Assembly (NCBI GenBank): GCA_026770705.1 | Contig: JANJGN010000022.1 | Span: 21,080,001-21,144,000 of the forward strand | DNA length: 64,000 nucleotides | From: Isurus oxyrinchus | Taxonomy: Eukaryota | Direction of reading: 5' to 3' | In this document: one piece after another, positions 19,415-34,500 of the stretch | Layout of the letters: every line of letters starts with the position of its first letter | How positions within the stretch are numbered: the stretch's first letter is position 1 | Program-made: the position numbers and the translations under genes | The notes under the pieces: model-generated | The model's input: only the letters and a program-made list of their open reading frames with translations | Databases searched by the model: none | What the model was told of the DNA's origin: nothing

Positions 19415-20640
19415 CTAGCTGAAGGTTTTTTGGATTAAAGCCTCCTGGGTGTCCCTGCCTCCTTGAAGTATGCCCAGGTCAGCGTCTACCCACTCAGTGC
19501 ATGCTCATCCTTAGAATCACTGCTGGACTCATCGTGTGCATCTGGAGCAACTGCATCCATGTCTTCCTCGTCCAGTGCGTCGCCCCTTTCCAGCGCCAGA
19601 TTGTGGAAAGCGCAACATGAAATGACTATCAGCAAAACACACAATCTGGGGGATACTGGAGTGCACCCCCTGAATGGTCCAGGCATCTGAAATGCATCTT
19701 GAGAAGACCGATGGCTCTCTCCACCACAGCCCTTGTGGAGCCGTGGCTCCTATTGTACCGCTGCTCAGCTTCTGTTCTTGGATGGCGGAGAGGCGTCATG
19801 AGCCACCTTCTCAGGGGATAGCCCTTGTCACCCAGCAGCCATCCATCCAGCCGGGCTGGAGCATTAAAGGGCCCCAGCACCCGGGAGTGTCTGAGGATGT
19901 AGGCATCATGGGAGCTGTCTGGGTACCTTACACAGACTTGCAGAATCAGCATCCTGTGGTCACACACTATTTGCACATTCATGAAGTGGAAGCTCTTCCT
20001 GTTGACGAAGGCACCGGGCGACCCACTGGCGCCTTGATAGCCACATGTGTACAGTCTGTTGCACCCTGGACATGGGGGAAGCCAGCAATGGCCACGAAGC
20101 CTCTGGCTCGCTCTGTCTGACTGGCATCATCCCAGTGGTAGTGGATGAAAGTTAATGCACACCTGAATAGAGTGTCTGTCACCTGCTTGACACAAATGTG
20201 GACAGCTGATTGGGAGACTCAGCAGAGATCACCCACCGAGCCCTGGAAAGAACCGGAGGCATAGAAGTTGAGAGCAGCTGCGACCTTTAAAGCCACTGGC
20301 ATGGGGTGTCCACCCACACAGTTAGGGGAGATCTCAGGCCCAATCATCTGACAGGTATAATTGATTGTCTCCCTTGAGAGATGGAGCCTCCTTCAGCACT
20401 GTACCTCAGGCATATTGAGGTAGCTGTTTCGCCACCATTATACCCTGGCAGCAGGATAATGGCGTCTTCTGCGGCCCTTCTGCCTTGTACTTCCTGTTGG
20501 CCCTACGCCCCTTGTGCCTGTGCGTCTCCTCCCAAAGGTGGCTCCCCTGGAGGCTGAATGTGGATTCCTGGCCTCCTCCCCCTTCTGGGCCTTCCTTCCT
20601 CCTCAGAGGAGTTGCCTCCCGTGGAGAGCACAATTCCCAT
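19415..20640 (-). pseudogene. HARBI1-like DDE transposase, frameshifted
   Basis: [66 protein letters not shown]. Confidence 0.93.
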
Positions 20641-21419: not shown

Positions 21420-22630
21420 AACTACACAGTATTGGGCATACAGAGATGAAGCGATTGTCCAGGATGGCATCTTTTACAAAGAAACAAGTCATCATCCCTA
21501 AAGAAATAAGAAAGGAGATGCTGAAGCATATCCATGCAAGCCATCAAGGAATTGAGACTAGTCTGAGGAAGGCAAGAGAAGTTCTCTACAGGCCAAACAT
21601 AAGCAATAAGATTAAAGACCACGTCAGCCAGTGCAGTTCTTGAAATGAAAATCAAGCTAAACAAAAAGAGCTGCTCATGACTCATGACATCCCAGTCAGA
21701 CTATGGATGAAGCTTGGAGTACACCTCACTGCTTTCTTTGGAACTGACTACTCATCACCGTCAACTACTATTCAGGCTACTGGGAGTTAGACAAGCTGGC
21801 GTCAATGACTGCCAGTGAGATCATAGAATGCCTGAAAACAAACTTCAGCTGTTTTGGCATTCCTGACATTGTGATGAGCGACAATCTCCCTCAGTTCATG
21901 AGTGAAGAATTCAGACACTTCATGAATGATTGGGAAATTCAGCACTACACATCGTCTCCACACTATCCCCAGTCAAATGGAAAAGCTGAGGCAGCGATGA
22001 AAATTGTGAAAGGAATCATCAAAAAATTGAGTAGATCCAGTACTGATGTGTACAAGACAATCTTAGAGTGGAGAAACATACCTACTGAAAGCATTGAAAG
22101 TTGTTTAGTCCAGCGGCCAATGTCATGCTGCACCCAGATTATTCTTCCAACAGCTAGAACACTATTGAAGTCAGAAGTAGTAACAGAAGCGAGTGACAAA
22201 GTCAAAATGAAACAACAGAGACAAATTTCACTTTGATAATGCATCCATCTCACAGCCAGAGCTGAGAGTTGGAGAGGCGGTTGGAGCGCAAACATTCAAC
22301 ACACTCAACATAAGTCAGCCCACTTGGCAACTTGGAACCTGTGCAGTTGTCGCCTCGATCGCACACGGTGAGAGTGAACGACCAGGTATATCGCCGCAAC
22401 CACCGACACAGGTGTGCAACCGGAGAAGCTGCTCCTTCACAGCAGGCAGCCCATGAGGAAGACTCGATTTTGCCAACTGAACAAGAAATGGAACGACCAT
22501 CGATCCCAGCTGCTCCCCAACAATGCAATGGATCAGCAGCAATGCTCACCATGGCAACGGCATGCCCCACAGAGGCAATGTCACCACAGGACCCAGCAGA
22601 TACCAGACAAACAGCCAACAACAATCCGTA
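21420..22630 (+). mobile_element. Gypsy integrase fragment
   Basis: HIHASHQGIE zinc finger, FGIPDIVMSDN, TSSPHYPQSNGKAE; no flanking LTR found. Confidence 0.9.
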
Positions 22631-23920: not shown

Positions 23921-25786
23921 TCACGACCTAAAGTTGTTGAATTCAATATTCAGACCGGAAGGCTGTAAGGTGCCTAGTCGGAAGATGAGGTGTTGTTCCT
24001 CCAGTTTGCGTTGGGCTTCACTGGAACAATGCAGTAAGCCAAGGACAGACATGTGGGCAAGAGAGCAGGGTGGAGTGTTAAAATGGCAAGCGACAGGGAG
24101 GTTTGGGTCATTCTTGCGGACAGACCGCAGGTGTTCTGCAAAGCGGTCGCCCAGTTTACGTTTGGTCTCTCCAATGTAGAGGAGACCACATTGGGAGCAA
24201 CGAATGCAGTAGACTAAGTTGGGGGAAATGCAAGTGAAATGCTGCTTCACTTGAAAGGAGTGTTTGGGCCCTTGGACGGTGAGGAGAGAGGAAGTGAAGG
24301 GGCAGGTGTTACATCTTTTGCATGGGCATGGGGTGGTGCCATAGGAGGGGGTTGAGGAGTAGGGGGTGATGGAGGAGTGGACCAGGGTGTCCCGGAGGGA
24401 GCGATCCCTACGGAATGCCGATAAGGGGGGTGAAGGGAAGATGTGTTTGGTGGTGGCATCATGCTGGAGTTGGCGGAAATGGCGGAGGATGATCCTTTGA
24501 ATGCGGAGGCTGGTGGAGTGATAAGTGAGGACAAGGGGGACCCTATCATGTTTCTGGGAGGGAGGAGAAGGCGTGAGGGCGGATGCGTGGGAGATGGGCC
24601 GGACACGGTTGAGGGCCCTGTCAACGACCGTCGGTGGAAAACCTCGGTTAAGGAAGAAGGAGGACATGTCAGAGGAACCGTTTTTGAAGGTAGCATCATC
24701 GGAACAGATGCGACGAAGGCGAAGGAACTGGGAGAATGGGATGGAGTCCTTACAGGAAGCGGGGTGTGAGGAGCTGTAGTCGAGGTAGCTGTGGGAGTCG
24801 GTGGGTTTGTAATGGATATTGGTGGACAGTCTATCACCAGAGATTGAGACAGAGAGGTCAAGGAAGGGAAGGGAAGTGTCAGAGATGGACCACGTGAAAA
24901 TGATGGAGGGGTGGAGATTGGAAGCAAAATTAATAAATTTTTCCAAGTCCCGACGAGAGCATGAAGCGGCACCGAAGTAATCATCGATGTACCAGAGAAA
25001 AAGTTGTGGAAGGGGGCCGGAGTAGGACTGCAACAAGGAATGTTCCACATACCCCATAAAGAGACAGGCATAGCTGGGGCCCATGCGGGTACCCATAGCC
25101 ACACCTTTTATTTGGAGAAAGTGAGAGGAGTTGAAGGAGAAATTGTTCAACGTGAGAACAAGTTCAGCCAGACGGAGGAGAGTAGTGGTGGATGGGGATT
25201 GTTTGGGCCTCTGTTCGAGGAAGAAGCTAAGGGCCCTCAGACCATCCTGGTGGGGGATGGAGGTGTAGAGGGATTGGACGTCCATGGTGAAGAGGAAGCG
25301 GTTGGAGCCAGGGAACTGGAAATTGTTGATGTGGCGTAAGGTGTCAGAGGAATCACGGATGTAGGTGGGAAGGGACTGGACAAGGGGAGAGAGAAGGGAG
25401 TCAAGATAACGAGAAATGAGTTCTGTGGGGCAGGAGCAAGCTGAGACGATCGGTCTACCGGGGCAGTTCTGTTTGTGGATTTTGGGTAGGAGATAGAAGC
25501 GGGCCGTCCGAGGTTGGGTGACTATCAGGTTGGAATCTGTGGGAGGGAGATCCCCAGAGGAGATGAGGTCAGTGACAGTCCTGGAAACAATGGCTTGATG
25601 TTCAGTGGTGGGGTCATGGTCCAGGGAGAGGTAAGAGGAAGTGTCTGCGAGTTGACGCTCAGCCTCCGCGAGGTAGAGGTCAGTGCGCCAGACAACAACA
25701 GCACCACCCTTGTCAGCGGGTTTGATGACAATGTCAGGGTTGGACCTGAGAGAATGGAGTGCAGTAAGTTCAGAGAGAGACAGGTT
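23921..25786 (-). CDS. Penelope RT plus GIY-YIG endonuclease, 5'-truncated, uninterrupted frame
   Basis: IKPADKGG, FYLLPKIHK, GRPIVS, DVQSLYTSIP, GVAMGT, WYIDD, NLVYCIRC...LYIGET. The first ~43 aa of the listed 664-aa ORF are antisense read-through from the inverted arm. Confidence 0.93.
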   Translation of the reverse strand, partial: NLSLSELTALHSLRSNPDIVIKPADKGGAVVVWRTDLYLAEAERQLADTSSYLSLDHDPTTEHQAIVSRTVTDLISSGDLPPTDSNLIVTQPRTARFYLLPKIHKQNCPGRPIVSACSCPTELISRYLDSLLSPLVQSLPTYIRDSSDTLRHINNFQFPGSNRFLFTMDVQSLYTSIPHQDGLRALSFFLEQRPKQSPSTTTLLRLAELVLTLNNFSFNSSHFLQIKGVAMGTRMGPSYACLFMGYVEHSLLQSYSGPLPQLFLWYIDDYFGAASCSRRDLEKFINFASNLHPSIIFTWSISDTSLPFLDLSVSISGDRLSTNIHYKPTDSHSYLDYSSSHPASCKDSIPFSQFLRLRRICSDDATFKNGSSDMSSFFLNRGFPPTVVDRALNRVRPISHASALTPSPPSQKHDRVPLVLTYHSTSLRIQRIILRHFRQLQHDATTKHIFPSPPLSAFRRDRSLRDTLVHSSITPYSSTPSYGTTPCPCKRCNTCPFTSSLLTVQGPKHSFQVKQHFTCISPNLVYCIRCSQCGLLYIGETKRKLGDRFAEHLRSVRKNDPNLPVACHFNTPPCSLAHMSVLGLLHCSSEAQRKLEEQHLIFRLGTLQPSGLNIEFNNFRS

Positions 25787-26357
25787 GATCATCCTCCGCC
25801 ATTTCCGCCAACTCCAGCATGATGCCACCACCAAACACATCTTCCCTTCACCCCCCTTATCGGCATTCCGTAGGGATCGCTCCCTCCGGGACACCCTGGT
25901 CCACTCCTCCATCACCCCCTACTCCTCAACCCCCTCCTATGGCACCACCCCATGCCCACGCAAAAGATGTAACACCTGCCCCTTCACTTCCTCTCTCCTC
26001 ACCGTCCAAGGGCCCAAACACTCCTTTCAAGTGAAGCAGCATTTCACTTGCATTTCCCCCAACTTAGTCTACTGCATTCGTTGCTCCCAATGTGGTCTCC
26101 TCTACATTGGAGAGACCAAACGTAAACTGGGCGACCGCTTTGCAGAACACCTGCGGTCTGTCCGCAAGAATGACCCAAACCTCCCTGTCGCTTGCCATTT
26201 TAACACTCCACCCTGCTCTCTTGCCCACATGCCTGTCCTTGGCTTGCTGCATTGTTCCAGTGAAGCCCAACGCAAACTGGAGGAACAGCACCTCATCTTC
26301 CGACTAGGCACCTTACAGCCTTACAGCCTTATTGAATTCAACAACTTTAGGTCGTGA
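25787..26357 (+). pseudogene. Inverted duplicate of the GIY-YIG C-terminal region
   Basis: Nearly identical peptide in ORF 25683-26357, with a small indel near the C-terminus (QPYSLIEFNNFRS). Confidence 0.9.
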
Positions 26358-26787: not shown

Positions 26788-29619
26788 CTTTTCTTCTCCG
26801 CCGATGCTGCCAGACCTGCTGAGTTTTTCCAGGTAATTCTGTTTTTGTTTTGGATTTCCAGCATCCGCAGTTTTCTTTGTTTTTATTACTACTTTAATTC
26901 CCTTGATTGGCCTCTTAATTGTCGGGGGGGACGCGTGCAAAAGTCATGTGATTTCGCGGACAGTCAGGTCATCGTCATGTGACTGCTGGGTGAAACAAGA
27001 GCTTTGCGCAGAAGCCGTTTTAACCACCACATGCAGCAATCTGCACTCAGCTCCTAATTTGATCTGATCTGGGGAGAGTGGTGCCGGACTGAGATTGTGG
27101 AGTCTCCTTACGGAGCAGGGGTAGAAGAGACCTCCTTGGTGCTGTCTAGCACATTTTAGCATTTGGCGATAGGGAAATTTATGGCAGTTTGAACCTATTT
27201 TAACTGAACCAGTTGGGATCCACTGAGTTGCCACAATGTCACCTGGCAAGAGTCAGGACAAGTTCCCCTTTAAGGGCACCGATATAATAAAAAGAATGTG
27301 GTCCAATCAAACTGAAAGATACTTAAAATAGAGCAAGGAGCCCAAACTGAATCAAAAGGAACCTTAGCAACTAAATCATGATGTTTTATCAAGCACCCTA
27401 TTCCCTGGAGCACCCATGGGGCACAGAAGGCCTCAAGCATACCCAGCTGCACTAAACTTCTCAAAGATTATGACTAATTTCTAAAGTTTCTGCCTTAAGC
27501 TTGGTCCTGGTGTTATATTCTTCCAACTCAGAATGTTTTTGTGTAAATATTACGCAAAGTGGTAAAGCTTCTCGGCCAGGCAGCCTTTGCATTTTTCAGC
27601 AAACCTCATCCAAGGGCAGGATGAGGTTTTTTAAAAAAACCTCGCTTGTTTTATTTTCACAGAAAATACTTTTCCATGGGGTGGCAAAATTTCACACAAC
27701 TCCTGCAAAGCCCACTGCTATTCAAATTTAGCAAAACTGAGGGTGAATAATCGGACATGGTAATTCAGAGGGAAGAGCGAGTGCCAAAAATAATTTGTCC
27801 TTGTAAGCAGCAGGTGATTAAAAATCTTAACTCCAAATTGGAACAAGCACACTCTCCTGTGTATTCTGATTATACAACAGATCAAAACAGGGTCACAAGC
27901 TACTGTTACATTTGCTAAAATGTTACTTTCGATGTATGCGGAAATGTGCAGTGGCAATTAAGCTCCCTAATAATGCCACGATTAAGCTACTATGAAACTA
28001 GATCTGTGTAATAACATCAAGAAGAAACTTAAAGTTAAGACACACTACTCAACAGCAGTGTTATTCAATAGTTTGCATTGGCATGTCATAAAGTACATCT
28101 GTCTGCGTATAAGAGGTAGCAATTCCTCTGCCTGACAAATACCTGCTACATGCCGGTGTTGTGTTGTGTTGTCATCATGCCACTGGCATGTTGCTATTTA
28201 TAAGACTCTGGTTCCCATTCATCACTTGAATAGGAAGCAGGGACTATTTATTTGAAATGTGACTATAGCCAAAAGTAATTTGCACACTTGGAACCTAATA
28301 TGGTGATTAAGACATTTTATGTCACAACCCTGCTGTTCTGGGTTTGCATTCTCTCAGTTCTGCCTGCACAAATATACTGGCCACACTTGCAATAGCCTTT
28401 TGTCAATCGTTAGCCAGATGTTGAGGGAACCTAAAACTGAAGCAGGCACTCTTGATCGGAGGCAATTATGACTTTATTGGCAACCCATGGTGTCATATTA
28501 TCATTGCAGTTATACCTTACAGTAGCTAAACTAAAGGTAGAACTAATTATGAATTAAAGAAAATGAGAACTTTAAAACAATACATACTTACAACTAGATG
28601 AAGTAGGCACCCTGTAGAGTACATACTCCTGCCATGTTGTGTTAACTCAACCTTATTACAATTACACAGCTCTACCTTGAGGCTTTTCCCTGCCTGCTTG
28701 ATGCTCTGTAACTGAATGGCATCCATCCATCTTGGGAGGTATCCCTGGGTGTGTGTCACTTCTGGGCTGAACTTTCGTCTGCTGTGGCTGTACAAGCCAA
28801 CTCGTAAGTGGCAATCCCTTTTGCAGCTGGCACAGATGAATAGCGTGGCCCGAGGTCAACTGCTGTTTTTTTTCCGTCCGGCGTGCTCTCTTTTCCGCCA
28901 TCTCGTCATTTCTCTTGTCCTCTACTTTCTCCAGGCCCTTCCCGACCGCTTGTGTCCAGGCAACTCCGGTCAGCAGCAAGGACTTCCCACGCATCGACTC
29001 CAATCCTGGTCAACTTGAAGTCTCCCTAACAGGCATCCTTGTATCGCAGACATGAGTGACCTGTTGGTCTCGTGCCAATAGCAAGGTCACCATAGAGCAT
29101 ATCTTTGGGGATGTGGCCGTCATCCATTCGGCTCACATGCCCCAGCCAACAGAGTCGAGGGCAAGCACGCCGGGGATCCCTGCACACTGGTGTACTCCCA
29201 TATTCAGCACTGTCTTGCCAGGTGATTCCCAATATTTGTCTGAGGCAGCGAAGGTGGAAGCTGTTCAGCTGCTGTTCTTGCCTTCATAAGCTGTCCATCC
29301 TTCGCTGATATAAATGAGGATGCTGAGAACAGAAGCCTGGTACACATGGAGCTTTGTATCTTCAGTTAGTTTGCTGAAGATCCACACACAACTTCTCAAC
29401 TTTGAAATGACAGCTGTGGCCTTGGCAAACCTGCTGCTGATTTCGGTATCAAGGGACAGGTTGCTGATAATTGTTGATCCAAGGTATGTGAAGATGTCGA
29501 TGACCTCCAGAGTGAGGTTGTTGATTGCTGTAGTGTGGCCTTGTCACCTGTTTGTAATAGAGTTGATCTGCAGACAACTTTCTAAGTGGAAACATTAGGT
29601 TTATTTACAATACAGGCAG

Positions 29620-29826
29620 GGCTTGGCCTAAATAGCCAAGTGGTTATGGTACTGGGTTTGTAACCCCAAGATCTCACAATGGCAAACAATGTAACTTCAT
29701 CTGAAACAGATGGAAACGGGTTTGTGCTCGAAAGAGTATCAAGAGTTCAAATCTCACAATGACAAAAACTATGAAACAATGTAACTTCAGCTGAAACAGA
29801 TGGAAATGGGTTTGTACTCAAAAGAG
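29620..29826 (+). mobile_element. tRNA-derived SINE with internal tandem duplication, inserted in the 3' LTR
   Basis: A-box-like TAGCCAAGTGG, TGT anticodon-like loop, B-box GTTCAAATC; 15-bp TSD TTACAATACAGGCAG; absent from the other LTR. Confidence 0.8.
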
Positions 29827-30714
29827 TTACAATACAGGCAGCAGCAACTACACGTGTGCTTACAACTCCATCTCTATCTCTACACCGACGGTGGAGGTAG
29901 CCAGAGCTGCTAACACATTGGTTTACACAGATCATGTGATCTTGCAACACAGGACCATTTTTAAAGGTACAGTCCAGCATTTAACAAAACCATAGTTACT
30001 ACATTCCTCCCCCTTTAACTTTGCTGTACATATTATGCTTACAAGTATATTTATTTCATGCCATTATAATATTTACACCGATCATGAAATTTTCAAGTTC
30101 GGTCTTTCAGGTGGTTTCCTGATTCATGTGGAATGTCGCAGCTCCACAACTTCAGATTCTTTTTCAGGAACCACATTCTCTGGAACTGCATGAACATCGG
30201 GTACCTCGTTGGGCACTTGCAGTTCAGTGTCATCCACTCTGACAGAGACATCAGACAGGTCAGTCCTTGGTTGAGCATTTTCAACAAGAAACACTGGTTC
30301 AGTAATGGTTACAGGTGGAAGCATATCTTGTTGTGGTATCTCTCTTTTCCTTAAATGGTCCACATGCTTACGAGTGATCCGGCTTTCCACTTCTACGTGG
30401 TATAATAATGGTCCGGTCACTGAACTTATTTTGCCTGGTAACCACTGAAATTCTTCACATATTCTGCTTCTCCAACAGTAAATTGCCTCTCAAGACTATG
30501 TAAGTCATGCACAGCACTTTGGTTTCCTTGACTCTTCTCCACTTTCCCCTCCAAATTTGGAAATATTAGGCTCAGTTTTGTCCTAAGACAGCATCTCATC
30601 AACAATTCTGCAGGTGTTGCTCCTGTTGCCATGTGGGGGGTTTTCCTGTAGTGAAAAAGAAAGTGTGTAAGCTTGGTCTCCAATGAATTATCTATTAATT
30701 TCTTCATATTTGTC

Positions 30715-31575
30715 TACAGCATCTAGAATTCTTTCCAGATAAGGTCTTGGAAGTAACTTGTACCTCGTTGATTTTATCTTCAGCATCATCATGCAGCAAA
30801 CCATTATGAGGGACTGGAATAAAATCAAAGTAGGCACAGTTTGATAATCTGTTTATTGCTTCCTTCAAATATTTATAGAAGCTACCAGCCACCATTTTAT
30901 TGTCTTTTCAGAACCTTCTTCCTTTTTGTCTCCTCCTTTCCACCACAGAGTTTAGTCTCATCCTTCGTTTTGACTTCTCTGTCAGCCAGACTTCTCTCAG
31001 GTGAAATCTCAACTCGTTTTAGTTCAGTAGCTGAGCCTCCCAAAACTTTATTATTTGCTTGCCTCTTTGAAAGCTCTCCGATTTTTGTTTTCAAAGCCTC
31101 TTTGACTTCATTTAGTTGATTCTTCAGCTCTTCTGTCTCTTATTTGTATTTGTTGGCTGCCTCTTGGAAACTTGATCATTGATGTGCCTTCTCTGCCAAC
31201 TGGTTCTTCAGTTTATTCAGGGAGACGCTGAATTCTTCCTGTTTCTCTTTGTACTGTTCCAGAGGCACAAACTTTGACCTGAGGGAAGCTTGTCATGTGT
31301 GAAGGCTTTTTAAACAGGTTTTCCTTTTCCTTGTGATGGTTACTCACTTTGTCTTGAAGTCTGTCATTCAGCAGGACCTCCTTGAGTTGCTTCTGCTGCT
31401 CTTCCATGTTTTAGTTTAAGATAGACTGCATTTCTTCAGGTTGTTGAGTCCTTACACACTCCTTTTTCATCTTGTTGCAGTCCTTGGACTCTCCAGGCTC
31501 TTTCTGTCATACTTTGTCTTGTTCCTTTTTTCAAGACATGAGCTCTTCCAGTTTTCTTTTGAAATCTCACTGGGC
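30715..31575 (-). pseudogene. Coiled-coil coding insert inside the Gypsy element, possibly derived from a UACA/RAI14/ANKRD24-family transcript
   Basis: Manual translation: MEEQQKQLKEVL, SKFVPLEQYKEKQEEFSVSLNKLKNQLAEK, ETEELKNQLNEVKEALKTKIGELSKR, LKEAINRLSNCAY. Family assignment is from recalled similarity only. Confidence 0.5.
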
Positions 31576-34500
31576 AATCAAGGTTGATTTCCCTTAACCA
31601 GTTTCGTGGCTTGGTCCTGCGCTTCTCAGTGGTAGCTGTGCCGATTGGTTTCTATAATAGACAGTTACTCTGCTGATACCTTTTACTTGGTTTTCTTTGC
31701 TTGTGTATGTTTTTAACTTGGCAGATGTTTGTTCCATATTTAATTGATGTTCACCATTATTTAAATACCTGAAAGTGTGTTCTCCGATCACAGTAGTGGA
31801 AGCTCCCGTGTCTACTTCCATTTTTACTGGTTTACCATTCACTTGTGCTGTAACAAATATTGGCTCTAGTCTTCCCAACGTTCATGTTAAACAATTAATA
31901 AATGTCAGAATTTGTTGTTTCAGGCTCTTCTACACTGTAGATTTCATTGGGCTTCTTCTGTTGTTTGCAAGCCTGTTTAAATCTCTCTTTGCACTGCGCG
32001 TGTCCATTTCTGTAACAAAAGTAACATTCTACTTTTTTAAACTGCCAATCACAAAAAGACTGATTGTTTCCACATCGATTTATCTGCTAAATTATTTCTT
32101 CTTATTTTTCGGTTAGTGGGGGCTGTTCCCCGTTTCACGGCGGAGTCTCACTTTCTCACGCCACTTTCGGCTGACTGTTCCTGCCCAATTTGGAGTGTGG
32201 TGCCATTTGACACCCCTTGTATTGCTTGTGAATCTCTTACAGCCCTTTCCATGGCCAGCACTGTTTCTAATGTCTTCTTAAGATCCAGCTTCACTTCAGC
32301 CAGCAATCTTCTCTGAATAGTGTCTTCTTCACACACAACACACTAAACAATCTCTGAGCATGTTGTTCAGAGCCTCACTGAACTCACAATGTTCCGTTAG
32401 TTGCTTCAAATTCACCACGTAGCTAGCAATTGTCTCACCCAGGGCTTTATTTTGTGAATTGAATCTGAACCTCTGCATTGTGATTGAGGGATGAAAATGT
32501 CCCTTCACGAGGTCACCAATTCTCTGAAATTCTTCAAAGCTGGGGTACTGGGTGCCATCAAACTTTGAATCAAACTGTAGGTTTTGTTCCCACAAGCATT
32601 CAAGAGGTTCACTTGCCTCTTCCCTATCCCTCTGATTTTGTTTGCTTGAAAGAAGAACGTGAGGCATTCTATTTACTGAGACCAATCATTTGTGGCTGGC
32701 TCAAAGGGATCAATTCTACGAAATTATGGCATTTTGGGTGAGTATATCATCTGTTATTTTAAACGGATGTTGATACTCACAATCGCTGGGCGAGGTACAG
32801 TACCGATTCTGATTTATTTTGATTTATCCTCATCACCAGTTTGTTGTAGTGGGGCCTTGTCACCTGTTTGTAATAGAGTTAATCTGCAGACAACTCTCTA
32901 AGTGGAAACATTAGGTTTATTTACTATACAGCCAGCAGCAGCTACACATGTGCTTTTAACTCCATCTCTCTCTACACTGACTGTGGAGGTAGCCTGCGCT
33001 GCTAACGCATTGGTTTACACAGATCATGTGATCTTACAACACAGGACTATTCTTAAAGGTTCTGTACAACATTTAACAAAACCATAGTTACTACACTGAT
33101 GTTGATGGAGAGTGGAGTCTCTGCGTCCTGGCCCATAACTTTGGTCTTCCTGGTGCTGGTTGTCAGTCCAAAATCCTTGCAGGCCCAGGAGGACTGATCT
33201 AAAAGCTGCTACAAATGAATTTTATCGTGGGATGCTAGCACAGCATCATCAGCAAACAACAGCTCAAGAACTAGAAAATTACACAATTTGTCTTGGTGCA
33301 GAGTCTTGCCAAGTTGAACAGCTTGCCTTCAGCTCTGGCATGCAGGTAGACTCCCTCACATGAGTCACCCAAAGCAAACAACAGCAGCATGGAGAAAAAT
33401 ATACCAAAGTGAGTTGGTACCCGGATGTAGCCCTGCTTCATCCCACTGCTGATCTTGCAAGTTTCTGATGTTGCTCCATCGTAACTGACAGAACTGTGCA
33501 TGTTCTCATGGAATTGAGGAAATGATGCTCAGTCTGCATTCTGCAGCAGTTTAAAGGGTCCATCTCTGACAAGGTCAAAGGCCTTGGTGAGGCCCTTGAA
33601 GGCAACGTCAAGTAGTCTGCACTCTTCGTGGCACTTCTTCTGTAACCGCCAAAGTGAGAAAATCATGTCAATTGTCACTTTTCCAGCTCTGAAGCTGCAC
33701 TGAAACTTGATAGATGTGTGATGCCAGTCTCTGAAATCTGGTCGGAGCAACGTGAGCGAAGACATTTCTCACAATGCTTAACAAGGAGATGCCCAATCAA
33801 TTGTGATAGTCACTTCGTCTTTACACAAGGTACCATGAGGCACAAATCTTTTCTTCCAGCAAAGGCACAAACGATCATGGAGTTGCTGCAGCAGTGCTAG
33901 TTTTCTACTTCTGATGATTTCAGGTGGAATGCCATCGTTTCCTGGAACTTTATCACTGGCAGGATGGTCAATGGCCTTTTCGAGCGCTACTATGGTGGGC
34001 TTGCTGTCCAGCTCCTCCATGACAGAAAGGTCTGGAATGGCACTGGGAGCTTCTTCAGTGATAGTGTTCTCTGTTGCATTGAGTTTGAGGTAATGCTCCA
34101 CCCACTTTTCCATTGACATGCAATGTTCAGTGATGATTATTCCTGCCTTTGTCTTCAAAGGGGCAGATACTTTTGCTGCTGGGCCTGTCCCTTTCTTGAT
34201 TCCTTCATACATCTCTCTAGCATCCCTGGTACAGCAGCAGATTGTATACTGTTGCAAAGTTTCAACCAGTATTGATTGACACAGCCGAGCAGTCTGCTTG
34301 GGCTGGATTCCGGCAGCTGTGAGAGCATCTAGGTTTTGTTTGCTGGGAACTTGCTTTTAGTTCAAGTGCTCTCCTCTTATTTGTGGACACTGGCTCCATT
34401 TCAATCCAATAAGCCTCAAACCAGTCCGTATTCCTCTGATCTCTTTCTCCAGTGAGTGTTGTGCAGTGGATCCCACTTTGACACCGCACTCTGAGTCTGC

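Follow-up and report, generated by a model that had tools for sequence, protein, structure and literature searches.

How did host-like coding sequence come to occupy the place of the reverse transcriptase (RT) in a long terminal repeat (LTR) retrotransposon? The question is raised by a 64,000-nucleotide stretch of the Isurus oxyrinchus genome (assembly GCA_026770705.1, contig JANJGN010000022.1, G000:C22:21080001-21144000; hereafter the window, in whose positions coordinates are given), where an LTR element of 3570 bp lies on the minus strand at 33095-29526. A previous sequence-only reading had found RT, RNase H and the integrase core replaced by about 870 bp of host-like sequence, taken as a single coding segment captured from a UACA-type mRNA. 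Using searches over the 4.98-Gb genome, we found instead that at least four pieces make up the insert, a mosaic with stop codons and frameshifts in the window copy and with sequence from both UACA and CAPRIN2. We consider it probable that an RT-less Gypsy-type family gained these pieces by RT template switching in the particles of a helper element, and that the CAPRIN2 piece, which is back-spliced, likely came from a circular RNA.

CAPRIN2 exons in back-spliced order

The 3' part of the insert (30900-30698), including LKEAINRLSNCAY, corresponds to CAPRIN2 and runs from the end of exon 5 through exon 6 into exon 3, with every joint at exact splice sites. On the minus strand, the last 24 nt of exon 5 (30877..30900), entered at a 6-nt word common to the element, are followed by the whole of exon 6 (30724..30876, 153 nt; host C20:89901949-89901797, 86.8% identity, E=6e-48) and then by the start of exon 3 (30698..30723), with the back-splice junction at 30724/30723 and an exit word of about 10 nt at 30707-30698. 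The frame 30907-30704 gave a weak Pfam match to Caprin-1_dimer (E=2.7e-4). LKEAINRLSNCAY had been read as the UACA C-terminus; it aligned with CAPRIN2 instead (75% over 64 amino acids, E=4e-30), while its match to the UACA C-terminus covered 13 amino acids (E=0.18).

A genome search with the Pfam Caprin family returned intronless copies inside related elements, with a frame up to 85% identical to shark caprin-2. Four candidates for the host gene from this search were all element copies and were rejected; the search also returned an exon that we take to be CAPRIN1-like. The host CAPRIN2 gene was located via PF12287 on C20 near 89.90 Mb, and its coding exons were numbered from a tblastn search with P0016, their ends being read from AG/GT. 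Exons 3 to 6 measure 87, 239, 83 and 153 nt, and RNA contigs skip exactly the CAPRIN2 introns of 761, 964 and 166 nt.

At the exon 5-exon 6 joint, the intron between the two host exons is missing, and the LTR element that holds them is itself discontinuous. The exon 6-exon 3 joint occurred at exact donor and acceptor ends in all 20 loci of subfamily C, the window-type copies, 19 of which read A in place of G at the final base of exon 6. Other genomic copies with the same chimeric joint, for which the sequence-only reading had proposed a count, were found. That reading had also envisaged exon-exon junctions of one host gene; they are present in the CAPRIN2 part, including the back-splice, which had gone unnoticed, and absent from the UACA part. 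When the window element and four copies of a further subfamily, D, were compared with 100 kb of CAPRIN2, exons 3-6 alone matched, repeats aside, and each of these exons is single-copy in the 100 kb. Two marks of a circular RNA (circRNA) pseudogene were therefore found: an exact non-colinear splice junction and the absence of host exons from outside the circle. The introns flanking exons 3-6 are long (4.3 and 6.6 kb) and the inner ones short (0.17-0.96 kb). In humans, a circ_CAPRIN2 of 5 exons is listed in the accessible part of a published source (PMC6900950).

One full turn and an empty site

Subfamily D (16 loci) carries a longer part of the same circle, which starts at nt 22 of exon 4, continues through exons 5, 6 and 3 and re-enters exon 4 as far as nt 31. 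The insert therefore amounts to 562 nt plus a second copy of a 10-nt word located at exon 4 nt 22-31. The exon 6-exon 3 joint is clear in 12 of the 16 loci, shifted by an indel in one, deleted in two and accompanied by loss of exon 3 in the last. Among the 15 loci displayed in alignment, entry at nt 22 was seen in 13 and exit after nt 31 in nine, with small indels at the exit in four more.

A search with the sequence just upstream of the D insert recovered 30 loci with the same joint. Caprin sequence is lacking in 24; the other six have the circle, and two of the six probably represent a single locus assembled on separate contigs. At the empty loci the integrase continues uninterrupted through a single copy of the 10-nt word; a script found the 10-mer within one non-CpG mismatch in 12 of the 24, and the site is deleted in four. 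Because the integrase passes straight through one word when the site is empty, the element lost none of its own sequence when the circle was added. Empty sites could also arise by excision from D, but the empty state matches the uninterrupted integrase of subfamily A. Subfamily B (4 loci) was considered as the pre-capture parent and rejected, as it lacks the insertion site.

The back-splice, the single whole turn enclosed by a duplicated word and the empty site together argue for template switching onto a circular RNA. RT would have quit the element RNA at the 10-nt word common to CAPRIN2 exon 4, copied the circle of exons 3-6 once, met the same word and returned to the element, giving exactly 562 additional nt with no loss, as seen in subfamily D. 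Subfamily C holds about 200 nt of the same circle, including the back-splice, about 80 nt upstream of the D site; its caprin piece replaces a few bases and its downstream site is empty. Microsimilarity was found at the switch points of both subfamilies, namely 6 nt at entry and about 9 of 10 nt at exit in C and 10 nt in D, in agreement with the template switching first proposed for this locus. Two switches would be required for C, from the circle itself or from co-packaged D RNA, and either a second capture or copy-choice from D RNA may account for it. C and D depart from the host together at five exon 6 sites, all of them third positions, and no private change is fixed in D, which leaves a test of independence between C and D without power.

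Several points weigh against this account. The footprint would be identical if the template were a linear transcript containing the exons in repeat, and back-spliced CAPRIN2 RNA was not directly observed: contigs assembled from four presumed RNA runs contained the three normal CAPRIN2 joints and no back-splice, in a material (assembled contigs only) that drops rare forms and so speaks neither for nor against the circle. The flanking introns share one inverted match, but at 123 nt and 75% it is weak, and inverted matches also occur in other long introns of CAPRIN2. An exact 10-mer match to CAPRIN2 exons 3-6 is found at 7 of 1862 other element positions, which favours the account, whereas a near match (9 of 10) arises by chance at 89 of 1871. 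Finally, the autonomous helper element is a postulate.

The same switching onto a linear RNA with repeated exons, arising by trans-splicing or from a since-lost tandem duplication of exons 3-6, would account equally for the exon 6-exon 3 joint and for a 10-nt word occurring twice, one unit apart. We nevertheless regard it as unlikely, given that 100 kb of CAPRIN2 contains no second copy of the four exons and that the intron layout fits circle formation; moreover, since 562 is not a multiple of 3, the repeat shifts the frame, and duplicating the exons in the genome would yield a null allele. Far less credible is an RT jump on linear CAPRIN2 mRNA, or a rearrangement within the element, that fell on exon ends by chance. 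The exon 6 end and the exon 3 start are similar 7-mers (6 of 7 alike), and copy comparisons showed that these LTR families rearrange often. A microhomology jump would, however, merge both 7-mers, as in locus L045, while nearly all copies keep the tandem pair; the ends of exons 2 and 6 have only 2 nt in common, and the exact one-unit length would be unexplained. An assembly artefact as source of the chimeric joints was ruled out by the presence of the same joints on many contigs. A circular CAPRIN2 template is the likelier reading.

UACA sequence and a second LTR family

Upstream of the CAPRIN2 piece, window 31470-31013 consists of two pieces of the host UACA large exon, a 911-aa open frame at C25:4881186-4883918, at about 70% identity. 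Piece 1 (31120..31470) matches G000:C25:4882695-4883047 (70.6% identity, E=2e-54) and piece 2 (31013..31128) matches C25:4883489-4883605 (70.1% identity), the two being joined across a deletion of about 440 nt at a 9-nt common word. At the protein level, a profile of 15 copies matched ray UACA residues 903-1071 (HMMER protein scan, E=7.7e-22), piece 1 of copy L018 showed 50% amino acid identity to UACA, and the closest proteins to the captured pieces come from sharks. The proposed capture of a host gene with UACA as one source was therefore sound, and the FVPLEQ motif on which it leaned does belong to UACA, although to a mid-exon repeat and not to the C-terminal one. Since all UACA sequence falls in one 2.7-kb exon, no splice junction is crossed; an RNA origin of this part may nonetheless be suspected from the spliced TPR piece in the second family described below. 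With the UACA block of one copy as query, a word-index protein search gave no match and Pfam returned generic coiled coils only. NASP, suggested by PDB matches, was rejected as the identity of the block because these matches were weak. Two Cetorhinus maximus RefSeq proteins predicted as 'uncharacterized' (P0001 and P0002) match the UACA cargo and are likely element copies annotated as genes.

A stretch of UACA that the window lacks, used as query, yielded 7588 genome candidates (here and below, candidate numbers give a lower bound or a first look and should not be taken as copy numbers), 17 of which were fetched (L063-L079). These loci, termed family U, contain UACA exon sequence that starts at nt 865 and extends up to nt 2425 (about 80% identity); outside the common UACA block they have no match to the window element. 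They have their own terminal repeats of about 250 bp in elements of about 4 kb (e.g., L065:3300-7335), together with what we take from its motif to be a gag-like remnant, without a Pfam match. A piece of TPR, spliced and comprising at least seven exons in order, was present in all 10 loci tested. Both cargoes of family U, UACA and TPR, are coiled-coil genes.

The UACA deletion joint of the Gypsy block was also present in 7 of the 17 family-U loci, and U copies reaching exon nt 2415 exit UACA at the same base as the Gypsy copies, into the same foreign sequence. On the strength of this common joint and non-UACA flank, and not of the tree, comparison of the copies indicates that family U or its ancestor likely donated the UACA block to the Gypsy lineage. 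Other observations fit such a donation less well: an unrooted UACA tree unites all 36 Gypsy rows (100/100) apart from U and places the host exon among the U rows, and neither establishes nor rules out nesting of the Gypsy rows in U; Gypsy UACA rows are slightly nearer to the host than to U copies; and the 9-nt word at the deletion could allow it to recur. In L070 (4670-4870) and L074 (4600-4780), a UACA 2337-2415 piece and its flank are relocated before the main UACA block.

The sequence of events might then be as follows. Family U, which is unrelated, contains spliced TPR mRNA besides some 1.5 kb from the large exon of UACA; the Gypsy lineage would have acquired the deleted UACA block from it, in frame with gag-protease and in place of RT and most of RNase H. 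Further deletions, whose states are seen among the copies, would next have taken most of the integrase, leaving the caprin-free parent lineage that received the circle. The UACA origin originally proposed thus holds for the identity of the sequence, which most likely arrived through another LTR family. That one direct UACA capture explains the whole 870 bp is refuted: some 470 bp are UACA in sense orientation, but the 3' 200 bp are CAPRIN2, the UACA block shares with family U both its internal deletion and its foreign flank, and about 240 bp match neither gene. The latter comprise a linker between protease and UACA piece 1 (31471..31590), which is shorter in subfamily A, and a non-UACA continuation (30895..31012), whose first part is common to family U. 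The source search for 31590-31471 gave no match at E<0.05 against family U or the fetched UACA, CAPRIN2 or TPR regions, and further searches for the continuation (31012-30895) were also negative.

Coding signal in the captured pieces

Many copies have the UACA block in frame with gag-protease, and no Gypsy subfamily seen lacks it. The CAPRIN2 piece follows the stop codon that ends the gag-protease-UACA frame and likely rode along as a passenger. Sites differing among subfamilies fall at third positions in 40 of 66 cases in gag and 28 of 42 in protease (p<1e-4). The UACA block gave 21 of 40, against 38% for private changes (Fisher p=0.054), and in caprin exon 6, by contrast, six of the seven C-specific changes are not at third positions. 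It is possible, but only tentatively proposed, that the UACA coil was retained as a working translated extension of Gag-protease that aided RT-less spread, an idea compatible with the template-switching account. Its signal falls short of that in gag and protease, and all copies read are old. A broader version seems to us doubtful, namely that Gypsy particles package germ-line circular RNAs and captured circCAPRIN2 twice, and that the UACA coil passed between LTR families and was kept as a functional Gag-protease extension letting RT-less elements reach thousands of copies.

Relation to known systems

Acutely transforming retroviruses are replication-defective, carry host coding sequence fused to gag and are moved by a helper. 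The element described here differs in that no env was seen, in being a germ-line retrotransposon and in that an action of the cargo on the host is not in evidence.

Closer parallels exist for each half of the mechanism. For mouse circRFWD2, 33 high-confidence derived pseudogenes with a non-colinear exon junction lie beside LTR sequence, MMERVK10C-int being named in a figure legend (PMC4897178). This LTR link is an enrichment, its mechanism being termed mysterious in the main text, and the route of circular RNAs back into genomes was left open (PMC4897178). The shark copies resemble these pseudogenes in their number, non-colinear junction and LTR proximity, in another host and another type of element. 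Compared with what that main text describes, the circle is here found inside defined LTR elements with target site duplications (TSDs), along with an entry and exit word, a one-turn length and an empty-site parent.

In the accessible part of a second study, microsimilarity-dependent template switching by LTR elements is described as capturing host RNA from several parental genes, including the case of maize Bs1 (PMC5131818). Our family shares with that process host RNA between LTR segments, short words at the joints, multiple source genes and non-autonomous recopying. It differs from the Drosophila set in the same part of that paper, in which the host piece always replaced element sequence, as subfamily D loses none, which a circular template predicts; it also differs in numbering hundreds to thousands of candidates against 1-5 copies given there for Bs1, and in that cargo appears to move between LTR families. 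The string 'circ' is absent from the main text of that paper.

Microsimilarity capture by LTR elements, as far as the accessible part of PMC5131818 describes it, and circRNA-derived pseudogenes near LTRs (PMC4897178) are thus already known; the empty-site record and the same back-splice junction at two sites are what is new here. A literature search, which did not extend to repeat databases and most subscription papers, found no published report of this element family. As the state before, the state after and the switch word are kept in one family, a specific model can be formulated, in which entry and exit use the same word, one turn is gained and nothing is lost. The family would then also document, in fossil form, a circular RNA of an ancient shark germ line. 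In practical terms, element copies can mimic CAPRIN2 back-splice reads, as well as UACA or TPR genes in shark annotation.

Structure of the window element

Apart from its cargo, the window element retains the flanking features of an LTR retrotransposon, all on the minus strand and largely as first described. The 5' LTR (32842..33095) and 3' LTR (29526..30003) both have TG...CA ends and agree at 91.3% of 254 aligned bases; a later insertion of about 222 bp lengthens the 3' copy. A primer-binding site (32826..32838) fits the 3' end of tRNA-Ser(GCT) when CpG decay is allowed for; a tRNA-Ser(GCT) gene of the same genome was found by pattern, and ARAGORN confirmed one of the two loci scanned. The polypurine tract (30004..30016) directly precedes the 3' LTR. 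The flanking TSD, reported earlier as intact, is conserved at 4 of 5 bases (ATCAG at 33096..33100, ATCAA at 29521..29525), and the element interrupts a LINE-like reading frame, which we presume to be RTE-like.

The aspartic protease (31594..31881) matched PF13975 gag-asp_proteas (E=1.3e-7). The gag region (31895..32732, approximate ends, with stops and frameshifts) and the 3' part of the integrase (30093..30707, end of the core and tail) had no Pfam match of their own in the window; the earlier assignment of both stands because of where they lie and because they are homologous to sister copies with contiguous frames matching Integrase_H2C2 and rve, the integrase part being 71-74% identical to subfamily A copies with these two domains. 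In gag, sister copy L021 had a weak zf-CCHC match (E=0.03). As previously noted, neither reading frames nor Pfam revealed RT, RNase H or an integrase core between the protease and the integrase tail; RT was absent from all copies read as well, and the window element lacks the RT, RNase H and integrase set of an autonomous element. Subfamily A (L021-L025, L027, L029 and L031) has the UACA block in the RT position and keeps the protease, an RNase H tail (which we take to be such from its motif) and then the whole integrase with Integrase_H2C2 and rve, a Gypsy-type order with integrase last. By gene order and paired LTRs, we class the window element as Gypsy-type; it is an aged copy from a family without RT.

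Copies, age and dispersal

Once formed, the chimeras spread to many loci, where they are flanked by TSDs of 5 bp, and then decayed, in line with the mobilisation in trans suggested earlier. With an 861-bp segment as query, 39 other near-full-length matches at 85-89% identity were obtained (40 scored of 3820 candidates), and all 19 copies fetched were in the same element context. The 111 bp spanning the caprin joint were covered in 40 of 40 scored matches, of 182 candidates, and the coiled-coil core gave 7970 candidates, 150 of them scored. TSDs matched at 4-5 of 5 bases in 8 of 13 other C loci with the full element spanned, and at 5 of 5 in one more with a 1-base shift; this count excludes subfamily D, most A and B loci and seven C loci, the ends of which were mis-set by the script. 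LTR pairs in subfamily C copies are 87-94% identical, and the family is therefore old. In the UACA-block tree, subfamily A groups with C (100/100) and not with D, which suggests that modules may have been swapped between Gypsy subfamilies. Near-identical caprin-bearing loci at G000:C12:138354326 and C115:354308, on a chromosome-size and a small contig, are probably a duplicated haplotype in the assembly.

Other features of the window

Inside the 3' LTR lies a separate short repeat (29620..29826, no strand assigned) with a flanking duplication of about 15 bp and two internal units of about 90 bp; 40 of 40 scored genome matches, among 1655 candidates, cover it. It had a weak tRNA-like Rfam match (E=0.53) and is perhaps a short interspersed element. 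Elsewhere in the window, reverse transcriptase and GIY-YIG frames on both strands at 23924-26354 resemble a Penelope-like element with an inverted part, a separate integrase core (rve) lies at 21748-22233, and a DDE_Tnp_4 transposase fragment is found at 19632-20126.

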